Positions 3,280 to 33,999 of a DNA stretch of 37,086 nt are shown here, piece after piece (the stretch's first letter is position 1; every line of letters begins with the position of its first letter). Origin of the DNA: a virus (taxonomy: Duplodnaviria; Heunggongvirae; Uroviricota; Caudoviricetes). Under the pieces are notes generated by a model. That model saw only the letters and a program-made list of their open reading frames with translations, made no database searches and had not been told where the DNA came from. The stretch spans positions 1 through 37,086 of the IMG/VR virus record IMGVR_UViG_2671180770_000020; one strand, written 5' to 3'. A program made the translations under genes and the position numbers.

Positions 3280-3298
3280 AACTTGTTACCTCGGTCTG

Positions 3299-3375
3299 TT
3301 ACCGTTGAGGTAATAATTATGCTTATTTGGTTTGGTGTCAATAGATATGAGTTAAAAAAATTACCCGTAAGGTAA
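3299..3375. promoter_or_regulatory. Left operator/promoter region: two perfect TTACC-N5-GGTAA palindromes (3299-3313, 3361-3375) bracketing a putative leftward promoter
   Basis: Minus-strand TTGACA at 3336-3341 with a TAATTA/AATTAT -10 candidate at about 3313-3319; one palindrome overlaps the -10, the other lies upstream of the -35. Confidence 0.55.
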
Positions 3376-3386
3376 TCTATCTGGCA

Positions 3387-3410
3387 ATAAAAAAGCCGCC
3401 ATGAGGCGGC
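3387..3410 (-). terminator. Intrinsic terminator after the repressor gene
   Basis: Minus-strand hairpin GCCGCC-loop-GGCGGC followed by a T-run (A-run 3387-3394 on the plus strand), 23 nt past the repressor stop. Confidence 0.6.
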
Positions 3411-3432
3411 TTACTTACTGAAAAATATAGTT

Positions 3433-4017
3433 TTATTGTTTGCTTTTTTCGTTCTGGTTGATGACAAATTCAATGTAACTTTCGATCTTTGCTTTCTCGG
3501 TTTCGGGTAACAATGCGTAGCGTGAGCGGTCATAGTTGATAGTCGCAGGGTCGTGCGGGTGAATCAGTAGTTCATATCCGTGACGCCCGAATGCGGATGC
3601 AACATTCTCCAGGGTGGAAATGGAAACGCTGACCTCATTGTTTAACAGGCGACTGATTGTCACCTGGGCGACGCCGGATGCGCGGTGAAGTTTTCCCTGC
3701 GTTGAAAGGTCGCGGCTTTCGCTCATCCAGCGTTCCAGGTTGTGAGCCGCCAGCTGACCAATGTCGCTTGGGCCGACAGGCTGAAAACCTTCCTGAGAAA
3801 GCGAGCGATCGATATCAAGCCAGTTACGGGGTTTATTGGCGGCAGCTTCAATTTTTCGCGCAACCTGGTCGCCGATAACCTTCTTGCCAAGAGCCCAGCG
3901 GTTTACCAGATTTGCCTGAGTTCCAAGTTTTTCTGCCATCCGCGTCTGAACACCATTGAATTCACGGTCGATCAAGTCGTTGAGATTTTGCCTGCGGACG
4001 TCCTGGATACTTTTCAT
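3433..4017 (-). CDS. Prophage repressor (CI-like) with HTH_XRE domain(s) and no S24/LexA-type peptidase domain
   Basis: 194 aa; N-terminal Cro/CI-type HTH (...QTRMAEKLGTQANLVNRWALGKK...); a second HTH-like segment (...VTISRLLNNEVSVSISTLENVASAFG...); no Ala-Gly cleavage site or Ser/Lys peptidase motif seen; divergent from the cro-like gene. Confidence 0.7.
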   Translation of the reverse strand: MKSIQDVRRQNLNDLIDREFNGVQTRMAEKLGTQANLVNRWALGKKVIGDQVARKIEAAANKPRNWLDIDRSLSQEGFQPVGPSDIGQLAAHNLERWMSESRDLSTQGKLHRASGVAQVTISRLLNNEVSVSISTLENVASAFGRHGYELLIHPHDPATINYDRSRYALLPETEKAKIESYIEFVINQNEKSKQ

Positions 4018-4072
4018 TTTCTGGAAAATCGCCTCATATATGAATCAGTAGATGATTCAATTTAAAGCAATA

Positions 4073-4135
4073 TTACCCAACAGGTAAATGCACCCCACAG
4101 GTAACTATCCTTGATTTTTGTTACCTTATGGGTGA
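4073..4135. promoter_or_regulatory. Right operator/promoter region: TTACC-N5-GGTAA at 4073-4087, GGTAA half-site at 4100-4104, near-palindrome TTACCttatgGGTgA at 4121-4135
   Basis: Putative rightward promoter TTGATT (4111-4116), 17-nt spacer, GAATAT (4134-4139); the 4121-4135 site sits between -35 and -10. Confidence 0.55.
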
Positions 4136-4171
4136 ATATTTATTATCTGAAATAAATATCAGGCAATAGCT

Positions 4172-4402
4172 ATGAGCGATAACGGACATTTCGATTTCAA
4201 AAAGCACTGGCTTGCACTTACTCCGGATGAGCGTGAAGCCTTCGCACAGGAAGCCGGAACGACGAGTCACTATATCCAGACTCACTTAACAGGTAAGCGC
4301 AAAATGCCAGGTAAGGTATTGATGAATGGGCTTTTTAAAGCCTGTAAAACAAGACAATGGCTGCGCTCAAAAGCAGAATTGGCATACTTCTTCTACTCAT
4401 GA
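4172..4402 (+). CDS. Cro-like small DNA-binding protein (first rightward early gene)
   Basis: 76-aa ORF divergent from the repressor; HTH-like ...REAFAQEAGTTSHYIQTHLTGKRK... Confidence 0.5.
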   Translation: MSDNGHFDFKKHWLALTPDEREAFAQEAGTTSHYIQTHLTGKRKMPGKVLMNGLFKACKTRQWLRSKAELAYFFYS

Positions 4403-4424
4403 TATCCAGCCACAACCCTCTGTA

Positions 4425-4448
4425 GACCGCCATCCGGCGGTCTTTTCA
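4425..4448 (+). terminator. Intrinsic terminator just downstream of the cro-like gene (tR1-like position)
   Basis: GACCGCC-atcc-GGCGGTC followed by TTTTCAT. Confidence 0.55.
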
Positions 4449-4457
4449 TATCTATTC

Positions 4458-4472
4458 GTACCTCAAAGGTAA
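4458..4472. promoter_or_regulatory. Near-perfect copy of the palindrome (gTACCtcaaaGGTAA)
   Basis: Directly downstream of the 4425-4448 terminator and upstream of the 4553 gene. Confidence 0.4.
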
Positions 4473-6403: not shown

Positions 6404-6480
6404 TTACCTTATAGGTAATAAAATATTCTAATTTCTATTGATTTCATGTCTTATGTGGTTTTTAATTACCTAAGGGGTAA
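6404..6480. promoter_or_regulatory. Two perfect TTACC-N5-GGTAA palindromes (6404-6418, 6466-6480) upstream of the 6484 gene
   Basis: The second copy ends 3 nt before the ATG and overlaps the ribosome-binding region. Confidence 0.5.
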
Positions 6481-6483
6481 ATC

Positions 6484-6828
6484 ATGAGAAAACAGATACA
6501 GGCTCTTGGTCGACTCAAAACAGGCCAGATGAACAAAACAGAATCTGCGTATTGCCAGCACCTTGAGCTGCGTAAACGTGCAGGAGAAATCGTCTGGTAT
6601 CGATTTGAGGGTATCAAGTTGCGGTTAGCTGACAACACGTTCTATACGCCAGATTTTGCTGTGATGCTCGCCACCGGTGAGATGGAACTGCACGAAGTGA
6701 AAGGTTTCTGGACCGACGACGCCAGGGTGAAAACCAAAGTCGCCGCAGATCAGTATCCGTTCCGAATCATCGGGGTAACGGTTAAACCAAAGAAAGCAGG
6801 TGGTGGCTGGAACATCGAAGAGTTCTGA
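6484..6828 (+). CDS. DUF1064-like phage protein with a PD-(D/E)XK-type motif (putative nuclease/resolvase)
   Basis: 114 aa; ...FYTPDFAVML...ELHEVKGF... gives a D-x(n)-E-x-K signature. Confidence 0.5.
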   Translation: MRKQIQALGRLKTGQMNKTESAYCQHLELRKRAGEIVWYRFEGIKLRLADNTFYTPDFAVMLATGEMELHEVKGFWTDDARVKTKVAADQYPFRIIGVTVKPKKAGGGWNIEEF

Positions 6829-9394: not shown

Positions 9395-9420
9395 GCCGCC
9401 AACTATGGCGGCTTTATTTT
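9395..9420 (+). terminator. Intrinsic terminator upstream of the terminase genes
   Basis: GCCGCC-aactat-GGCGGC followed by TTTATTTT. Confidence 0.6.
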
Positions 9421-9431
9421 GCATGGTACTA

Positions 9432-9464
9432 TTACCACAACGGTAACTATTACCACGGTGGTTA
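9432..9464. promoter_or_regulatory. Tandem palindrome copies (TTACCacaacGGTAA 9432-9446; TTACCacggtGGTtA 9450-9464) directly upstream of the small terminase start
   Basis: Located between the 9395-9420 terminator and ATG 9464. Confidence 0.45.
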
Positions 9465-11529: not shown

Positions 11530-12378
11530 TTACTTTTGTGTTTTTGATTTTCTTTGATAGGTGGAATTTAAATCACCATTTATATTTACTAGAGGATTAT
11601 TCAATAATGTACTGATTTCTGGATTGTTAATTCCAGTAACGCCAAATTTCTTTACGGACTCATTAAGGTCTTGTAATGATTTTAGACCTACAAACCCATT
11701 AGCAATTGTATTATTTGTTGCCAAAGGAATGTTTTCCTTATAGGACTCATATTCGTTTTTTAAATTTTTGTGAGCTTTTTCTAGATTTTCTAGTTTAGAT
11801 GTTGTTTCATCAATAACCTTAGATAATTCTAAAATACGAGCTTGTGCTGCGCGCAGTTCTGTCTCCCTCTCTTTCAATTCAGATGTGAGTTGTCCCATTC
11901 TGTCTTTTGAAAGAATTATTTCCTCTTTCATGTCTTGAATGTTTTTTTCAGCGCCTGTTTTTACTTTTTCGTAAGTAATGTCTTTTTTAGCCAGCAATCT
12001 CTGTAGCCGTGTTTCACGTTGTATTTTTCTTGCCTTCCGGTGGTTTTCGATTGAGTCATTATTATCAAGAGGTTTTGCTTGCCATACGTTAATGATATTG
12101 TTTACCCATGGTAATAGGCAGCAGATAGTAATTACAGATAAGCATGGATAAAACATAACAGTTTTCCATGTGCTGTTATCTGAGATGTATGAAATTTTAT
12201 CTATTATATTTGATTTGCTAAAAAACAGATAAAGAAGTGATTTCCAGTTGAAGGCGCACCAGGACATAACAAAAGCACCAAGCACAGGGTTTTTGGCTCT
12301 ATGCACGGCAGTGTTTGCAGTAGATAAAAACAGCTCTTTGAACGATTCAAACATACTAATTACCTTAAAGTTTTTCAT
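11530..12378 (-). CDS. Moron: membrane-anchored coiled-coil protein of unknown function
   Basis: 282 aa from ATG 12378 (MKNFKVI...); markedly AT-rich relative to neighbours; opposite strand to the flanking late genes; two hydrophobic segments then a long Lys/Glu-rich coiled coil; own terminator and palindrome upstream. Confidence 0.55.
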   Translation of the reverse strand: MKNFKVISMFESFKELFLSTANTAVHRAKNPVLGAFVMSWCAFNWKSLLYLFFSKSNIIDKISYISDNSTWKTVMFYPCLSVITICCLLPWVNNIINVWQAKPLDNNDSIENHRKARKIQRETRLQRLLAKKDITYEKVKTGAEKNIQDMKEEIILSKDRMGQLTSELKERETELRAAQARILELSKVIDETTSKLENLEKAHKNLKNEYESYKENIPLATNNTIANGFVGLKSLQDLNESVKKFGVTGINNPEISTLLNNPLVNINGDLNSTYQRKSKTQK

Positions 12379-12382
12379 GATT

Positions 12383-12397
12383 ATACCTTTAAGGTAA
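12383..12397. promoter_or_regulatory. Near-perfect palindrome copy (aTACCtttaaGGTAA) abutting the moron start
   Basis: A minus-strand TATAAT overlaps the site just upstream of ATG 12378. Confidence 0.4.
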
Positions 12398-12600: not shown

Positions 12601-12677
12601 TGGCGTGGCATGCAGGATTCGAACCTGCGACCAACCGCTTAGAAGGCGGTTGCTCTGTCCAACTGAGCTAATGCCAC
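12601..12677 (-). tRNA. tRNA-Arg (anticodon UCU), 77 nt with encoded CCA
   Basis: Hand-folded cloverleaf: acceptor GUGGCAU/AUGCCAC, D-arm GCUC-AGUUGGACA-GAGC, anticodon arm ACCGC-CUUCUAA-GCGGU, variable loop UGGUC, T-arm GCAGG-UUCGAAU-CCUGC, discriminator G, CCA. Confidence 0.9.
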
Positions 12678-13000: not shown

Positions 13001-13015
13001 TTACCTGAAAGGTAA
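13001..13015. promoter_or_regulatory. Perfect palindrome TTACCtgaaaGGTAA upstream of the head gene cluster
   Basis: Lies in the non-coding interval between the tRNA and the first head-module gene (13106). Confidence 0.45.
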
Positions 13016-13105
13016 TAATTCGTGCGTTAAATGTCAACTATCTACGATAAATAAATCATATGTGGTTAAATTGGTAATAATTTAATTGCGTACGGAGTCA
13101 TTGAT

Positions 13106-18812: not shown

Positions 18813-21283
18813 TGGCTATCAGTTGGATCCAGCCCAGCTTTGCCGGTGGTGAGATTGGACCGTCGTTGTACGGGCGTATCGACATGGCGAAGTACCAGGT
18901 AGCATTGCGCAAGTGCGATAACTTTATCGTGCGGCAGTATGGCGGCGTTGAGAATCGACCTGGTACGCGTTTTGTCGGTGCCGCCAAATACCCAAATCGG
19001 AAATGCCGCCTGATACCGTTCCAGTTCTCGACGGTTCAGACTTATGCTCTGGAGTTCGGACACCAGTACATGCGCGTTATCAAAGATGGTGCGTTGGTGC
19101 TGAACAGCAGCAATGTTATTTATGAAATTGCCACGCCATATACTGAAGCCGATCTGTTCCGAATTAAATTCACGCAAAGCGCAGACGTGCTTACGCTGGT
19201 TCATCCGGCATACCCGCCGAAAGAGTTGCGACGTTATGCGCATGACAACTGGCAACTGGTTGATGTGGTAACGAAGAACGGGCCATTTGAAGATATCAAT
19301 ATTGACGAGTCAGTGACGGTTTATGCCAGCTCCAGCACCGGGACAATTACGTTAACGGCAAGCGCCTCTATTTTTGGCGCGGAGCAGGTAGGCAAATTGT
19401 TCTATCTGGAACAGCCAGCAGTGGATTCAGTACCGGTATGGGAAACCAGTAAGAGTACGTCGATTGGCGATATTCGCCGTGCAGACAGTAACTACTATCG
19501 CGCCGTTACAGCAGGCAAAACAGGTACTTTGCGCCCTTCGCATACAGAAGGCACATCATGGGATGGCTGGGGCGGATCCGGTGATGATGATACTGGCATT
19601 GAGTGGGAATATCTGCACAGTGGTTTTGGCATTGCCCGTATCACTGCTGCAAATGGCACTACTGCAACTGCTGAGGTGATTTCCTATATCCCTTCGCAGG
19701 TCGTTGGCGAGGATAATGCCAGCTATAAATGGGCTAAATATGCCTGGAACAGTGTTAATGGTTATCCTGGCACTGTTGTTTATTATCAACAACGTCTTTA
19801 CTTCGCCGCATCGACTGCGTTCCCTCAGACTATCTGGGCCAGCCGTACCGGGGATTATAAGGATTTTGGCAAAAGCAATCCTACGCAGGATGACGACAGA
19901 ATTATCTACACCTATGCCGGGCGTCAGGTTAATGAGATCCGTCACCTGATTGATGTTGGTTCGCTGGTGGCGCTGACTTCCGGAGGTGAGTACGTCATCA
20001 CCGGCGACCAGAACAAAGTGTTAACCCCATCATCATTTGCATTCAGCTCTCAGGGATCAAATGGCTCAAGCAACGTCCCGCCAATTGCCGTGGCGAATAT
20101 TGCTCTGTTCGTCCAGGAGAAAGGCAGCGTTGTCCGTGATCTGGCCTACTCATTCGATGTTGACGGCTATCAGGGGAACGACCTGACCATCCTTGCCAAT
20201 CATCTTTTTCAGAAGCACAGCATTGTTGACTGGTGCTTCTCGATTGTCCCTTACTCCAGTGCCTTCTGCATTCGTGATGACGGTAAATTACTGGTGATGA
20301 CCTATTTGCGTGATCAGCAGGTTTTTGCATGGGCACCACAATCCAGTACCGGAAAATATGAAAGCACATGCAGTATCAGCGAAGGCAATGAAGATGCGGT
20401 GTATTTCGTCGTTAACAGAACCGTTAACGGGCAAACAGTGAGATACATCGAGAGACTGTCCAGCCGTTTATTTACCAGCGATGAAGATGCTTTCTTTGTT
20501 GATTCTGGCCTTAGCTATGATGGAAGAAATACGTCTGACAGAACGATGACCATCACTGGTGGTTCTGGTGAATGGGATTACCGTGCGGAATATACAATCA
20601 GTGTTTCTGGTGGCGCGTACTTCACCAGTAGTGATGTCGGCGCGCAACTACAGTTCCCTTATACCGGAACCGATCCTGGTATTGGCGATGAAGTGTCAAA
20701 AGAATTACGTTGCGACATTATTTCTGTAACCAGCAATACTGCTGTAGTGGTTCGTGCTAACAGGAACGTCCCGCCATCCCTCAGGAATACGGCCACCACG
20801 AACTGGCAGATGGCGCGCCGGACATTTGGCGGCTTGTCTCATCTTGAAGGCCAGACCGTAAACATTCTTTCTGATGCGAATGTTGAGCCACAGAAAGTTG
20901 TTTCCGGAGGTGCCGTCACACTGGAATCTCCGGGGGCTGTAGTGCACATCGGCCTGCCAATAACTGCTGAATTCGAAACACTGGATATCAACATTAACGG
21001 ACAGGAAACGCTGCTGGACAAAAAACAGGTGATCCCCTCCGTTACTCTGGTTGTGAATGCCAGTCGCGGCATCTGGGCGACTACGCCTGGCGGTAAATGG
21101 TACGAATATCCACAGCGTGAATTCGAGTTCTACGATGATCCTGTTGATGATGCTACCGGAAAAGTAGAAGTGAAACTGGACAGTAACTGGGGCAAAAACG
21201 GACGTGTAAAAATCCGTCAGCTTGATCCGTTGCCGCTGTCTGTTCTTGCCGTTATTCCTCGCCTTACTGTTGGGGGATTCTGA
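18812..21283 (+). CDS. Large virion structural protein (823 aa; possible tail hub or tube component)
   Basis: Long ORF in the late operon, translationally coupled on both sides; function assigned by size and context only. Confidence 0.5.
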   Translation: MAISWIQPSFAGGEIGPSLYGRIDMAKYQVALRKCDNFIVRQYGGVENRPGTRFVGAAKYPNRKCRLIPFQFSTVQTYALEFGHQYMRVIKDGALVLNSSNVIYEIATPYTEADLFRIKFTQSADVLTLVHPAYPPKELRRYAHDNWQLVDVVTKNGPFEDINIDESVTVYASSSTGTITLTASASIFGAEQVGKLFYLEQPAVDSVPVWETSKSTSIGDIRRADSNYYRAVTAGKTGTLRPSHTEGTSWDGWGGSGDDDTGIEWEYLHSGFGIARITAANGTTATAEVISYIPSQVVGEDNASYKWAKYAWNSVNGYPGTVVYYQQRLYFAASTAFPQTIWASRTGDYKDFGKSNPTQDDDRIIYTYAGRQVNEIRHLIDVGSLVALTSGGEYVITGDQNKVLTPSSFAFSSQGSNGSSNVPPIAVANIALFVQEKGSVVRDLAYSFDVDGYQGNDLTILANHLFQKHSIVDWCFSIVPYSSAFCIRDDGKLLVMTYLRDQQVFAWAPQSSTGKYESTCSISEGNEDAVYFVVNRTVNGQTVRYIERLSSRLFTSDEDAFFVDSGLSYDGRNTSDRTMTITGGSGEWDYRAEYTISVSGGAYFTSSDVGAQLQFPYTGTDPGIGDEVSKELRCDIISVTSNTAVVVRANRNVPPSLRNTATTNWQMARRTFGGLSHLEGQTVNILSDANVEPQKVVSGGAVTLESPGAVVHIGLPITAEFETLDININGQETLLDKKQVIPSVTLVVNASRGIWATTPGGKWYEYPQREFEFYDDPVDDATGKVEVKLDSNWGKNGRVKIRQLDPLPLSVLAVIPRLTVGGF

Positions 21284-29678: not shown

Positions 29679-30314
29679 TTATTCTATTGGCAGCTTATGC
29701 TTTGAAATTATGGCCAATCTGTTTTGGAAGTTTTCCGCATCACCCCACAACCAGGTTTCACCTTTCTCAAGCTCTTCCTCGTTATTCATCTCTATCAGTT
29801 CGCATGTCATCATGTCGTAACCATAGAGGTGGAGGCCAAGTTCCAGTGCGTCATACATGCGAGCCTGCCAGAACGACATGCCTTCATGAGTCTGGTTGCG
29901 ATCAGACACGATGATATCGTACCGTTCCAAGAGGTAGTTCATGAAGATGATGCCGGCGAAATCATGAAGCACAGCACGATGCTTAGGCTTCTGGGTTCTC
30001 CATACCAATATCTGCGTGACAGGTCGGCAGTTAAGATAGCTGTCAGGCTGGATAATGACACGATTGTAATACACAACCTCTTCGGTGAGGTCATTTATCA
30101 GTGCCAGTTCAAAGTGCGCCTGTGGAATCTCGCCTTTCTTACGATCGTCTACACGGACAACGCGGTATCCAGGAGCCAGAGAAACGCCTTTGACATCAGA
30201 TGTGACATCGTTGCCGTTCACTAACTCTGAATACAGGGCGCGGTTGTCTGGAGTTTCGTTCAGATGAGCGAAAACCTCAGTTACCTTTGCCGGATTCAGC
30301 AGTTGTTGTGGCAT
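29679..30314 (-). CDS. Hypothetical cytoplasmic protein (211 aa) in the accessory island
   Basis: ATG 30314 with GAGGTGA upstream; no recognisable motif. Confidence 0.5.
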   Translation of the reverse strand: MPQQLLNPAKVTEVFAHLNETPDNRALYSELVNGNDVTSDVKGVSLAPGYRVVRVDDRKKGEIPQAHFELALINDLTEEVVYYNRVIIQPDSYLNCRPVTQILVWRTQKPKHRAVLHDFAGIIFMNYLLERYDIIVSDRNQTHEGMSFWQARMYDALELGLHLYGYDMMTCELIEMNNEEELEKGETWLWGDAENFQNRLAIISKHKLPIE

Positions 30315-30352: not shown

Positions 30353-30367
30353 TTACCCGTAAGGTAA
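30353..30367. promoter_or_regulatory. Perfect palindrome TTACCcgtaaGGTAA (identical 15-mer to the 3361-3375 copy)
   Basis: Between the antirepressor stop (with a downstream hairpin at 30409-30424) and the start of gene 29679-30314. Confidence 0.5.
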
Positions 30368-30432: not shown

Positions 30433-31083
30433 TCAGAAGAACCCTGCCTTGTCGTTGATGTATTCCGCGTGAGTCTGGATATCACGCAGGCATTTGCTCA
30501 CACCGACGATGTAGCAGAACATGGTGGTCAGCTCCGCCGCCGCGCCCGATACATCGTGCCCGTCTTCCTGTAACTGGTTCAGCAGATTCATCAGCAGTGA
30601 GTTCTCCGTCAGGCCGAGAACACCAGATGGGGAATGAATCAGACTGCGGTAGCCGGGCTTCAGCGGTGCACTGTATTCTTTTTTGTCTTCCAGCTTGATC
30701 GCCTCCATAATGGCTGGCATGAAGCCTGACAAGACCTTCTCCACTTTTGTTTCTTGTTGTCTTAAACGTTTCTCGCATTCAATGAAGTAGCGTCGCACCT
30801 GGCGACCTTTTTCGTTACGCTCGACCATCGCCAGCTCTTTGGCTGTATCGAGGGTGAGGTGGTAGTCTTTTGCAGGACGGCCTCTGCCTATTTTTTCCCG
30901 AACTTGGGAAATAATCATAAAGTCTTGATTTTCAACGAAACCATATTCAGCAATTCGTTCGACAATCCACGAAGCAAATCGCTTACCCACATCGAGGAAA
31001 GTGTGTAAATCACGGGCATTAACGAGAAGAGCGGTTTCGTTGGATATAGTGCCGTTGAATACGGGGATGAGTTGAGCGTTCAT
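30433..31083 (-). CDS. Antirepressor (AntA-type N-terminal domain)
   Basis: 216 aa; N-terminal ...LIPVFNGT...NARDLHTFLDVGKRFASWIVERIAEYGFVENQDFMI... matches the remembered AntA/AntB antirepressor domain; GGAG upstream of ATG 31083. Confidence 0.7.
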   Translation of the reverse strand: MNAQLIPVFNGTISNETALLVNARDLHTFLDVGKRFASWIVERIAEYGFVENQDFMIISQVREKIGRGRPAKDYHLTLDTAKELAMVERNEKGRQVRRYFIECEKRLRQQETKVEKVLSGFMPAIMEAIKLEDKKEYSAPLKPGYRSLIHSPSGVLGLTENSLLMNLLNQLQEDGHDVSGAAAELTTMFCYIVGVSKCLRDIQTHAEYINDKAGFF

Positions 31084-31240
31084 TATGGCGTCTCCACTTA
31101 GCGAATTACATCACCACCGCTGAGACCAATCAGATGGTGGTGAACTGAACGGAGTTGGTCTTACCGGCCTAAGTGGTACCGGCGTCCTTTCGGACCCCCA
31201 TTCAGCCCACCATAATTCTGGCATGACTGTGCTATACGCA

Positions 31241-31263
31241 TAAAAAAACCACGTCTGGCGTGG
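31241..31263 (-). terminator. Intrinsic terminator between the small Ant-like gene and the antirepressor gene
   Basis: Minus strand CCACG-ccaga-CGTGG followed by TTTTTTTAT. Confidence 0.45.
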
Positions 31264-31354
31264 TATGCGCCACTTAGTAATCCGGGAGACCAATCCCGGC
31301 ACTGGATTTTGCCAGTGCCCGATTACTATGGCACAAGAGGAGTGCGATGTAAAT

Positions 31355-31369
31355 TTACCGCAAAGGTAA
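31355..31369. promoter_or_regulatory. Perfect palindrome TTACCgcaaaGGTAA in the leader upstream of the antirepressor gene
   Basis: Followed by the near-palindrome GGTAATTACA at about 31389-31398. Confidence 0.45.
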
Positions 31370-31400: not shown

Positions 31401-31658
31401 TTATCTGGTTTGTTTTCGTAATTGTTCGGCACAATAGTCGAGATGTGTTTGCAGATCCTGCATAGACATCTGTGAGCTGGTGACGTAGTTAATCAGTGCA
31501 GTCAGTTCGGCAAGTGGGCCATCGACATTAAATCCATCCTTATCGAGATCCCGGAGTAATTTCATCAAGTGCGATCCCTCCACCAGTGACCTGACGCCTC
31601 CCGGCGTGTGAATCCTTTCGGTAAATCCCTCTTCCAGTGGATAGTGATACTGCTGCAT
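31401..31658 (-). CDS. Small protein (85 aa) paralogous to the C-terminal domain of the adjacent antirepressor; LexA-box-associated
   Basis: MQQYHYPLEEGFTERIHTPGGVRSLVEGSHLMKLLRDLDKDGFNVDGPLAELTALINY...DLQTHLDY aligns by eye with antirepressor residues about 130-205 (...YSAPLKPGYRSLIHSPSGVLGLTENSLLMNLLNQLQEDGHDVSGAAAELTTMF...DIQTHAEY); GGAGAAG upstream of ATG 31658. Confidence 0.6.
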   Translation of the reverse strand: MQQYHYPLEEGFTERIHTPGGVRSLVEGSHLMKLLRDLDKDGFNVDGPLAELTALINYVTSSQMSMQDLQTHLDYCAEQLRKQTR

Positions 31659-31679: not shown

Positions 31680-31695
31680 CTGTATAAATATACAG
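31680..31695. promoter_or_regulatory. LexA (SOS) box CTGT-N8-ACAG
   Basis: aaCTGTATAAATATACAGta at 31678-31697, a near-consensus match to TACTGTATATATATACAGTA, 22-37 nt upstream of the small Ant-like gene start on the transcribed side. Confidence 0.7.
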
Positions 31696-31734: not shown

Positions 31735-31749
31735 TCACCTGAAAGGTAA
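31735..31749. promoter_or_regulatory. Near-perfect palindrome copy (tCACCtgaaaGGTAA) upstream of the LexA box
   Basis: About 40 bp beyond the LexA box in the divergent intergenic region shared with the tail fiber gene. Confidence 0.4.
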
Positions 31750-31853
31750 TATCTGTTCGTATTTATGGGTTATCTATCCATATATGGTTTTTAAGGTAAT
31801 AGAATAACCGGATATGCGGCGCAACGGGTGCTGCGACTATCTGGAGATTTAAC

Positions 31854-33848: not shown

Positions 33849-33999
33849 TTGTTTTTAGATTGCGACTAAAAATCGCAATCTAAAAAACACAAATGATGAT
33901 TTTGTTGTTTACTTATAACATAATAATTCATATATGGTTTGGTTTTGATGGTGTTCTACCAGAAACTGGAGATTTGATGAATGTTAAATGGTGGTTGAT

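Follow-up and report, generated by a model that had tools for sequence, protein, structure and literature searches.

A 15-bp palindrome, TTACC-N5-GGTAA, lies on both sides of the repressor gene in a phiV10-like prophage (Uetakevirus, phiV10/epsilon15-type), raising the questions of which protein reads it and how much of the prophage that protein controls. The window analyzed here is the whole stretch of 37,086 nucleotides of IMG/VR record IMGVR_UViG_2671180770_000020. A preliminary description had taken the palindromes for operators of the immunity region. They do behave like operators of the repressor encoded at 3433-4017, but the motif is not confined to that region, as 10 more copies are found outside it. 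Judging from sequence comparisons, the palindromes are most likely operators of the prophage's own SPC32H/epsilon15-type repressor (Rep) throughout the prophage. We infer both the role of Rep as the binder of the palindromes and the assignments of PL, PR, and the other promoters.

The palindrome and the sites flanking the repressor gene

Scanning the whole window for TTACC-N5-GGTAA revealed 14 matches with at most one mismatch, 9 of which are perfect. Our 100 dinucleotide-preserving shuffles of the window gave a mean of 0.66 and a maximum of 4, which rules out a chance origin. The centres of all 14 copies are intergenic, intergenic DNA being ~7.9% of the prophage in the gene map (binomial P ~4e-16). 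Positions A3, C4, C5, G11, G12, and T13 are invariant in 14 of 14 copies, and the symmetrised consensus of the set is aTTACCt-N3-aGGTAAt. Recent duplication is an unlikely source of the copies, since their spacers and flanking sequences vary, and a host IHF site was rejected as the identity of the palindrome because its consensus is different. A second motif, ATATRTGGTT, occurs 8 times in the whole window with one mismatch allowed versus 4.05 expected, an enrichment that is not significant; three of its copies are exact and well placed.

The features identified on the left of the repressor gene, together with the gene itself, are as follows:

3299-3313, OL-proximal operator, TTACCGTTGAGGTAA; shares one base with the PL -10 and covers the start region; half-sites invariant in five clades
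3313-3341, minus strand, predicted leftward early promoter PL: TTGACA (3341-3336), 17-bp spacer, AATTAT (3318-3313), matching the consensus at 10/12 positions
3361-3375, OL-distal operator, TTACCCGTAAGGTAA; 19 bp upstream of the PL -35 and 62 bp centre-to-centre from 3299-3313
3393-3412, minus strand, intrinsic terminator downstream of rep; phiV10 annotates a terminator at the same place
3433-4017, minus strand, rep, encoding an SPC32H-type repressor of 194 aa; its N-terminal HTH has the recognition helix ANLVNRW, and its C-terminal domain is HTH_3-like

Both operators in this list, as well as the copy at 4073-4087, are perfect as previously claimed, and the leftward TTGACA placed at 3336-3341 was confirmed (TGTCAA on the plus strand). 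The left-region alignment revealed that, at PL, GTCAATAG is invariant across the five Rep clades. Given their positions, the two operators, 62 bp apart, would bracket PL, one upstream of the -35 and the other over the transcription start.

On the right of rep, we identified the following:

4060-4088, minus strand, putative rep promoter (PRM analogue): TTTACC (4088-4083), 17-bp spacer, TTAAAT (4065-4060); its -35 and spacer lie inside the operator at 4073-4087
4073-4087, rep-proximal OR operator, TTACCCAACAGGTAA, a perfect copy
4090-4104, decayed middle OR operator, GCACCCCACAGGTAA, with 2 mismatches
4111-4139, plus strand, predicted rightward early promoter PR: TTGATT (4111-4116), 17-bp spacer, GAATAT (4134-4139)
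4121-4135, cro-proximal OR operator, TTACCTTATGGGTGA, within the spacer and -10 of PR
4172-4402, plus strand, cro-like gene encoding a 76-aa protein with an HTH fold (PHROG 35 "transcriptional repressor", E = 5.6e-13)
4424-4443, terminator 3' of the cro-like gene

The one-mismatch copy at 4121-4135 and the hexamers TTGATT and GAATAT are indeed present where the preliminary description had placed them. Its "half-site" at 4100-4104 does contain GGTAA, which is in fact the surviving half of the decayed operator at 4090-4104; this operator is intact as TTACCATAACGGTAA in epsilon15, SPC32H, and BUCT711 (OR alignment). The reported overlap between the sites and the promoter hexamers was also borne out, and these hexamers are invariant across the five repressor clades. 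A promoter scan offered an alternative for PR, namely TTGTTA (4118-4123) with TATTAT (4141-4146). The putative rep promoter scores 8/12, i.e., below the scan threshold, and epsilon15 has the same hexamers and spacing (OR alignment). The model of the cro-like protein is a 5-helix HTH whose nearest predicted structural matches are YdaS and the 434 repressor DNA-binding domain.

The arrangement suggests that the OR set originally comprised three operators, the middle one of which would have decayed in the window. By its position, the cro-proximal operator, occupying the PR spacer and -10, would block RNA polymerase, and the rep-proximal operator over the -35 of the weak predicted rep promoter would allow autoregulation.

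Sites before other transcription units

The 10 copies beyond the interval of the preliminary description, and their surroundings, are:

4458-4472, operator GTACCTCAAAGGTAA, 3' of the cro terminator and 17 bp upstream of TTGATC-17-CAAAAT, a possible promoter of the replication genes; orthologous copies in phiV10, Tyrion, and BUCT711
6404-6418, upstream operator of a second 62-bp bracket, 19 bp upstream of the -35 TTGATT (6438-6443)
6466-6480, downstream operator of that bracket, which overlaps the -10 TTTAAT (6461-6466) by one base and extends over the DUF1064 gene's ribosome-binding site (start codon ATG at 6484)
9432-9464, a pair of operators at 9432-9446 and 9450-9464, spaced by 18 bp, between the terminator at 9395-9412 and the terS start codon; the epsilon15 equivalent, 12-27, is annotated "repressor"
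12383-12397, operator in the spacer of a predicted leftward promoter, ATGACC-17-TATAAT (12408-12380), of a 283-aa accessory gene
13001-13015, operator upstream of the head-gene operon; the epsilon15 equivalent, 2931-2947, is annotated "repressor"
30353-30367, operator upstream of an accessory gene (29679-30314, minus strand; 211 aa), at a distance of 38 bp
31355-31369, operator abutting the -10 of a predicted leftward promoter, TTGTAA-17-TATATT (31397-31369), which would drive an isrK-like RNA, a C4 RNA, and an AntA-domain antirepressor
31735-31749, operator TCACCTGAAAGGTAA in the divergent ant/tailspike control region; the epsilon15 equivalent, 19895-19911, is annotated "repressor"

Operators overlap predicted core promoters at PL, PR, 12383, and 31355; sigma-70 scans revealed no convincing canonical sigma-70 promoter overlapping the sites at 9432/9450, 13001, 30353, and 31735. 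The 6404/6466 pair repeats the geometry of the PL bracket base for base. The lysis-cassette operator of relatives was not found in the window.

Since the same operator occurs at approximately ten further control regions, one repressor would directly silence most of the prophage's transcription units. Besides a second early-right promoter and the DUF1064-gene bracket, Rep would act on terS and the head operon, on the ant/tailspike region, on two accessory genes, and on a second antirepressor module that has two small RNAs in front of it.

These sites are also well preserved among relatives. Our footprinting covered five Rep clades at 43-99% identity. Across the clades, the half-sites, the PL -35, and the PR -35 (TTGATT, in all five) are invariant and the flanks drift; the outlying sites likewise keep their positions in clades whose Rep is only 43% identical, with invariant half-sites and diverging flanks. 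The motif occurs in 13-18 copies versus <1 expected in phiV10, Tyrion, epsilon15, SPC32H, and BUCT711, and in 11-12 copies per 20-kb locus in three further divergent prophages. In addition, a comparison of 15 genomes uncovered that spacings between adjacent sites are quantised, with 27 of the 60 short spacings measuring 62 bp (+/-1), and 62-bp operator pairs bracket two promoters in nearly all relatives.

Rep and the other candidate readers

Rep is a full-length homologue of SPC32H Rep (PDB 5D50_A over residues 1-190, E = 3.5e-42), in which an N-terminal HTH domain is joined to a C-terminal domain for tetramerisation and Ant binding. Pfam gives HTH families only for it and no Peptidase_S24 (self-cleavage) domain. 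A CI-like identity was rejected, the protein being an SPC32H-type Rep that has no self-cleavage domain and is paired with a LexA-controlled anti-repressor. The elements of this pairing are:

31401-31658, minus strand, ant, encoding an 85-aa anti-repressor homologous to SPC32H Ant (PDB 5D50_E, E = 1.6e-47)
31680-31695, a perfect LexA box, CTGTATAAATATACAG, directly upstream of ant and kept in 6 phages (ant-region alignment)

A second protein of the window (30433-31083) has an Ant-like domain, fused to an AntA domain. In SPC32H, LexA cleavage reportedly leads to expression of Ant, which takes tetrameric Rep off the DNA. Given that Rep lacks a self-cleavage domain, induction of the present prophage would run by the same route, from LexA cleavage to Ant expression to removal of tetrameric Rep from DNA. 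At the operator, two N-terminal HTH domains of Rep would each read one TTACC/GGTAA half-site, the half-site centres being 10 bp apart. PMC9638917, in its summary of Kim et al. 2016, describes SPC32H Rep as a tetramer when bound to palindromic DNA sites, with weak binding by the dimeric form.

We also compared the motif with the specificity determinants of Rep, using Rep clades at 99, 78, 45, and 43% identity, ~80 further homologues, and three divergent prophage contexts. The NLVNRW helix does not vary among the clades (43-99% identity) and is almost constant in the ~80 further homologues (minor variants NLVSRW, NLINRW, NLISRW, and NVISRW); the C-terminal HTH_3-like segment is 33% identical to that of epsilon15. 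As both motif and helix are essentially invariant within the family, this covariation comparison has no power. The motif was not found near the genes of distant N-terminal-domain homologues with a different helix 3 (Hydrogenovibrio, Thiomicrospira, and Paraburkholderia), which is a weak control. Nor does conservation tell whether Rep or the cro-like protein is the binder, because the latter is even better conserved (76% identity to epsilon15, with a nearly invariant HTH).

The cro-like protein (4172-4402) could be considered as the main reader of the palindromes, with Rep binding elsewhere or acting only via protein contacts. It has an HTH fold and matches a "transcriptional repressor" family of PHROG, its HTH segment, AGTTSHYIQTHLTG, hardly varies among the clades that have the invariant motif, and co-binding at OR is plausible given that Cro and CI share operators in lambda-type switches. 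However, a lytic-phase repressor at sites preceding late, packaging, and antirepressor genes would harm the phage, the epsilon15 record labels the sites as repressor sites, SPC32H Rep is reported to bind palindromic DNA as a tetramer, and the paired 62-bp geometry fits a protein with four DNA-binding heads. Collectively, we regard this alternative as unlikely.

Even less probable is a strict lambda-like OL/OR arrangement in which only the immunity-region copies function and the other ten are relics or chance matches. Several outlying sites do lack a recognisable overlapping sigma-70 promoter, and the lysis-cassette site was lost from the window with no obvious consequence. Against this, less than one copy per genome is expected by chance, the outlying sites hold their position with half-sites invariant amid diverging flanks where Rep is 43% identical, and the 6404/6466 pair has exactly the PL bracket geometry.

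There is an equally slim chance that the palindrome serves positive control, either as the site of an activator or as a component of a phage-specific promoter. This notion fits the frequent run of the right half-site into a -10-like TAATAA/TAATAT, the several sites preceding genes without good -35 boxes, and the presence of other candidate regulators in the phage (a PerC-like protein and a PHROG 536 member). Against it, at PL, PR, 12383, and 31355 the site occupies the spacer, -10, or start region of otherwise good sigma-70 promoters, which is a repressing rather than an activating position, and early, late, and antirepressor units all have sites, as would be expected of global silencing more than of activation at a particular stage.

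Beyond repression by Rep as such, we tentatively propose that Rep may be a fixed-geometry promoter clamp on top of a self-reinforcing induction circuit. In the clamp, two operators spaced by exactly 62 bp, one on each side of a core promoter, would be bridged by a single Rep tetramer. This layout (operator, 19 bp, -35, 17 bp, and a -10 sharing one base with the second operator) serves both PL and the promoter ahead of the DUF1064 gene, and Enterobacteriaceae prophages conserve it. In the circuit, Rep would also directly repress the larger antirepressor (AntA plus Ant-like domains) preceded by the isrK-like and C4 RNAs, and Ant triggered through LexA would unlock more antirepressor, a positive feedback that would commit the prophage to induction. 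A tetramer binding model has been proposed for SPC32H Rep, and the rigid 62-bp pairs provide a simple way to test it.

E. coli, O157:H7 included, commonly carries prophages of the phiV10 type, and according to the phiV10 record this phage alters the O157 antigen. A complete operator set maps what the repressor silences and traces the path that SOS induction would take through the prophage. It also holds a lesson for annotation, in that the motif marks nearly every transcription unit in phiV10-type prophages rather than the immunity region alone; the phiV10 GenBank record is without these operator features.

Comparison with known repressor systems

The preliminary description had seen in these sites the OL/OR geometry of divergent repressor and cro-like genes. 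Lambda indeed has the same order of leftward early operon, repressor gene, and divergent cro-like gene, with clustered operators between the divergent genes overlapping PR and the repressor promoter and a second cluster at the leftward early promoter. The gene order and promoter overlap support that geometry, but ten further copies before other transcription units make it too narrow a picture. Unlike lambda's, the window's repressor has no S24 peptidase domain and, by homology with SPC32H, would be inactivated by an anti-repressor; its operators measure 15-17 bp, have a different consensus, and include approximately ten sites outside the immunity region, late genes among them.

Dispersal of many operators of one repressor before separate operons, including one before a module of C4 RNA and antirepressor, is a likeness to P1 C1 (immI, c4-icd-ant). 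The P1 operators are asymmetric 17-mers, whereas those of the window are palindromic, and the window's module also has an isrK-like RNA. In the Pfam and PDB searches, the only strong homologues of Rep are SPC32H-type HTH proteins, which would probably set it apart from the P1 C1 family.

With SPC32H (PDB 5D50 and 5D4Z), the window shares a full-length Rep homologue without an autocleavage domain, a close Ant homologue, and a LexA box before ant, and the SPC32H genome has 18 copies of the same motif. The two differ in the C-terminal, Ant-binding domain of Rep, which is only ~39% identical although Ant is closely similar, and in the window's additional protein with an Ant-like domain. Full-text literature searches for the motif and the genus returned nothing relevant; in the vB_EcoP_ZX5 paper, overexpression served to test the repressor and an anti-repressor, and no operators were mapped.

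The closest precedent is annotated in epsilon15, whose RefSeq record (NC_004775.2) contains seven "protein_bind: repressor" features, all ATTACC-N5-GGTAAT, which may be predictions. They are orthologous in position to the window sites 9432, 13001, 31735, 3299/3361, and 6404, and represent only 7 of the ~15 copies found in that genome, with none marked at OR. Besides the identical motif, epsilon15 shares the layout, with sites on the left of the repressor gene, ahead of terS and of the head operon, between ant and the tail fibre gene, and ahead of the gene next after the replication genes, as well as 62-bp pairs and an OR triple with 17/30-bp spacing. In contrast, the window's Rep and the epsilon15 repressor have only 43% identity. 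Sites are gone from the window at OR (the middle one), at OL (the third one), and in the lysis cassette, and others have been gained before accessory genes (12383 and 30353) and before the isrK/C4/AntA module, which is absent from epsilon15. The sites are real, most likely functional, and known in kind, the motif being already annotated in epsilon15, and the window's operator set leaves the family picture unchanged. The window combines the Rep architecture, the enriched consensus, the orthologous sites (lysis-cassette excepted), and the Ant under a LexA box that characterise the Uetakevirus Rep regulon.

Abundance and distribution of the palindrome

The palindrome TTACC-N5-GGTAA occurs 14 times in the window when up to one mismatch is allowed, far above chance (0.66 expected from 100 shuffles, 0/100 of which gave as many). 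The preliminary description had placed it around the repressor gene, and its perfect copies (3299-3313, 3361-3375, and 4073-4087), one-mismatch copy (4121-4135), GGTAA (4100-4104), and promoter hexamers (leftward TTGACA, 3336-3341; TTGATT, 4111-4116; GAATAT, 4134-4139) were all verified in the sequence. The motif is not, however, restricted to this immunity region: ten more copies start at 4458, 6404, 6466, 9432, 9450, 12383, 13001, 30353, 31355, and 31735. All 14 are intergenic, the non-coding share of the prophage being only ~8% in our gene map (P ~4e-16). The ACC and GGT bases are unchanged in every copy, and the symmetrised consensus is aTTACCt-N3-aGGTAAt.

Relatives were scanned with the same tolerance, the chance expectation being <1 copy in each.

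Motif copies with up to one mismatch in relatives
epsilon15: 15
phiV10: 14
Tyrion: 15
SPC32H: 18
Klebsiella phage BUCT711: 13
three 20-kb prophage loci (Serratia, E. coli, Raoultella): 11-12 each

The epsilon15 RefSeq record holds seven features labeled "protein_bind, repressor, lysogeny", which may be predictions, and all seven contain ATTACC-N5-GGTAAT. Three are on the left side of the repressor gene; the others precede the terminase gene terS, the head operon, and the gene next in line after the replication genes, or fall between gp19 (at the position of the anti-repressor gene ant) and the tail fibre gene. Window sites 3299/3361, 9432, 13001, 6404, and 31735, in that order, have the corresponding positions.

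The predicted repressor switch and its probable operators

Identity of the region to Escherichia phage phiV10 and other members of Uetakevirus, the genus of epsilon15-like temperate podoviruses, is 98%, and its genes follow the phiV10 order between the integrase and the lysis genes. No peptidase S24 domain was found in the 194-aa product of 3433-4017 (minus strand), which is a full-length homologue of Salmonella phage SPC32H Rep (PDB 5D50 chain A, E = 3.5e-42). Two further components were located.

Components of the switch near ant
31401-31658, minus: ant, 85-aa ORF; product closely homologous to Ant, the anti-repressor of SPC32H (5D50 chain E, E = 1.6e-47 over residues 2-84)
31680-31695: perfect LexA box CTGTATAAATATACAG, directly upstream of ant, kept in six phages

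Because the Rep homologue, the Ant homologue, and the LexA box occur together, the window is assigned the Rep/Ant/LexA switch described for SPC32H. In a published summary of that system, the Rep tetramer binds palindromic DNA sites, dimer binding is weak, and the tetrameric Ant breaks apart the Rep tetramer (PMC9638917). The Rep C-terminal domain (3433-3750), the reported target of Ant, is ~39% identical between the window and SPC32H, and this pairing of a close Ant with a diverged Rep domain raises the question of Ant/Rep cross-reactivity between Uetakeviruses.

Control regions were aligned across five Rep clades (99, 78, 45, and 43% protein identity). To the left of rep, the flanks diverge but neither half-site pair varies, nor does the block GTCAATAG; this block is the -35 of PL, the predicted leftward early promoter, read on the other strand. 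PL (TTGACA-17-AATTAT) scored 10/12 in the promoter scan; operator 3299-3313 has one base in common with its -10 and overlies the start region, and 19 bp separate its -35 from the upstream operator 3361-3375. To the right of rep, epsilon15, SPC32H, and BUCT711 have three operators spaced 17 and 30 bp centre to centre, the middle one being degraded to GCACCCCACAGGTAA in the window and Tyrion. The GGTAA previously read as a half-site is the remnant of this decayed operator. In PR, the predicted rightward promoter toward the cro-like gene (4172-4402, plus strand), the -35 TTGATT is invariant and operator 4121-4135 occupies the spacer and -10, where a bound protein would block RNA polymerase. We also infer a weak rep promoter, with leftward TTTACC (4088-4083), a 17-bp spacer, and TTAAAT (4065-4060), which scores below the scan threshold and whose hexamers and spacing are shared by epsilon15. 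Since its -35 falls inside operator 4073-4087, autoregulation of rep is suggested.

Sites outside the immunity region and neighboring elements

Downstream of ant, the minus-strand segment 30433-31397 resembles P1 immI.

Second antirepressor module
31397-31369, minus: predicted promoter
31355: palindrome site
31242-31318, minus: isrK-like sRNA
31133-31217, minus: C4 antisense RNA
30433-31083, minus: AntA-domain protein, 216 aa

Over its final 80 residues, the AntA-domain protein shares 40% identity with the short Ant. The module RNAs and palindrome 31355 are kept in phiV10 and Tyrion and absent from epsilon15 and SPC32H.

Settings of distal palindrome sites
6404 and 6466: flank TTGATT (6438-6443), 17-bp spacer, TTTAAT (6461-6466), past the terminator behind the P-like replication gene
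9432 and 9450: terminator on one side, terS start codon on the other
12383: inside the spacer of ATGACC-17-TATAAT (promoter score 10/12)
13001 and 31735: kept in all clades aligned
31355: adjoins the -10 of predicted promoter TTGTAA-17-TATATT

The promoter adjoining 31355 would drive the isrK-like RNA, the C4 antisense RNA, and the AntA-domain protein. The 6404/6466 layout repeats that of PL to the base (operator, 19 bp, -35, 17 bp, and a -10 with one base in the second operator), and the whole bracket is kept in the five clades. Across 15 genomes and loci, adjacent-site spacings cluster at a few fixed values, with 62 bp (+/-1) making up 27 of the 60 short spacings and 17/18, 30/31, 47/48, and 75/76 bp also recurring. 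No palindrome was found upstream of the lysis cassette in the window (33849-33987), where phiV10, epsilon15, Tyrion, and SPC32H have one; also missing is the O-antigen modification gene, whose place is between the tailspike gene and the lysis genes.

The 283-aa accessory gene (11530-12381, minus strand) belongs to PHROG 4780, of unknown function. Its probable start codon is the ATG at 12357, not the one at 12381, because the PHROG alignment opens at residue 10 and a transcription start set by the predicted -10 (12385-12380) would fall downstream of 12381. A tRNA-Arg (anticodon TCT; 12601-12677, minus strand) in the variable stretch that separates terL from the head operon is also found in phiV10, SPC32H, and BUCT711.

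A second element, distinct from the palindrome, reads CATAT(A/G)TGGTT followed 5-6 bp on by GGTAATA (13057-13096, 31779-31805, 33929-33950, and 6451-6466). On the plus strand it precedes the head operon, tailspike gene, and lysis cassette, and may be a late promoter or activator site; with one mismatch it shows no significant excess (8 versus 4.05 expected). A stretch of ~40 bp before the head operon, ATATGTGGTTAAATTGGTAATAATTTAATTGCGTACGGAG, does not vary among 7 phages.

The binding protein and comparison with known systems

Several observations point to the N-terminal domain of Rep as the likely binder. The NLVNRW helix of this domain is the same in all the Rep clades and nearly so in ~80 further homologues (minor variants NLVSRW, NLINRW, NLISRW, and NVISRW), and identity to epsilon15 Rep is 54% in this domain versus 33% in the C-terminal HTH_3-like segment. 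Distant homologues of the domain outside Enterobacteriaceae (Paraburkholderia, Hydrogenovibrio, and Thiomicrospira; 35-40% identity) open with MKSIYDIRR and have different C-terminal domains and a different helix 3; TTACC-N5-GGTAA was not found near their genes. The Paraburkholderia ORF runs on into a long C-terminal extension. Within the family, motif and recognition helix are both essentially invariant, giving a covariation test no power. Lambda Cro shares its operators with the repressor, and by analogy the cro-like protein, which has an HTH fold and is even more conserved than Rep, may share these sites. Overexpression in the ZX5 paper, where operators were not mapped, shows that the repressor, 99.5% identical to the window Rep, governs the lytic-lysogenic choice.

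Collectively, the palindrome set is real and, judged from sequence, very probably functional. The motif and its repressor assignment are already on record for Uetakevirus; we add a map of all 14 sites in a phiV10-type prophage, a decayed operator in place of the "half-site", the conserved brackets of 62 bp around promoters, and the operator before the second antirepressor module. The immunity region appears to work like the lambda switch, whereas the autocleaving repressor and the confinement of operators to the immunity region, both lambda features, are not seen in the window. The dispersed layout is like that of P1 C1, including an operator before a C4/antirepressor module, but the operator and repressor are of another kind. 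All those features of the epsilon15/SPC32H Rep regulon that could be tested are present in the window.
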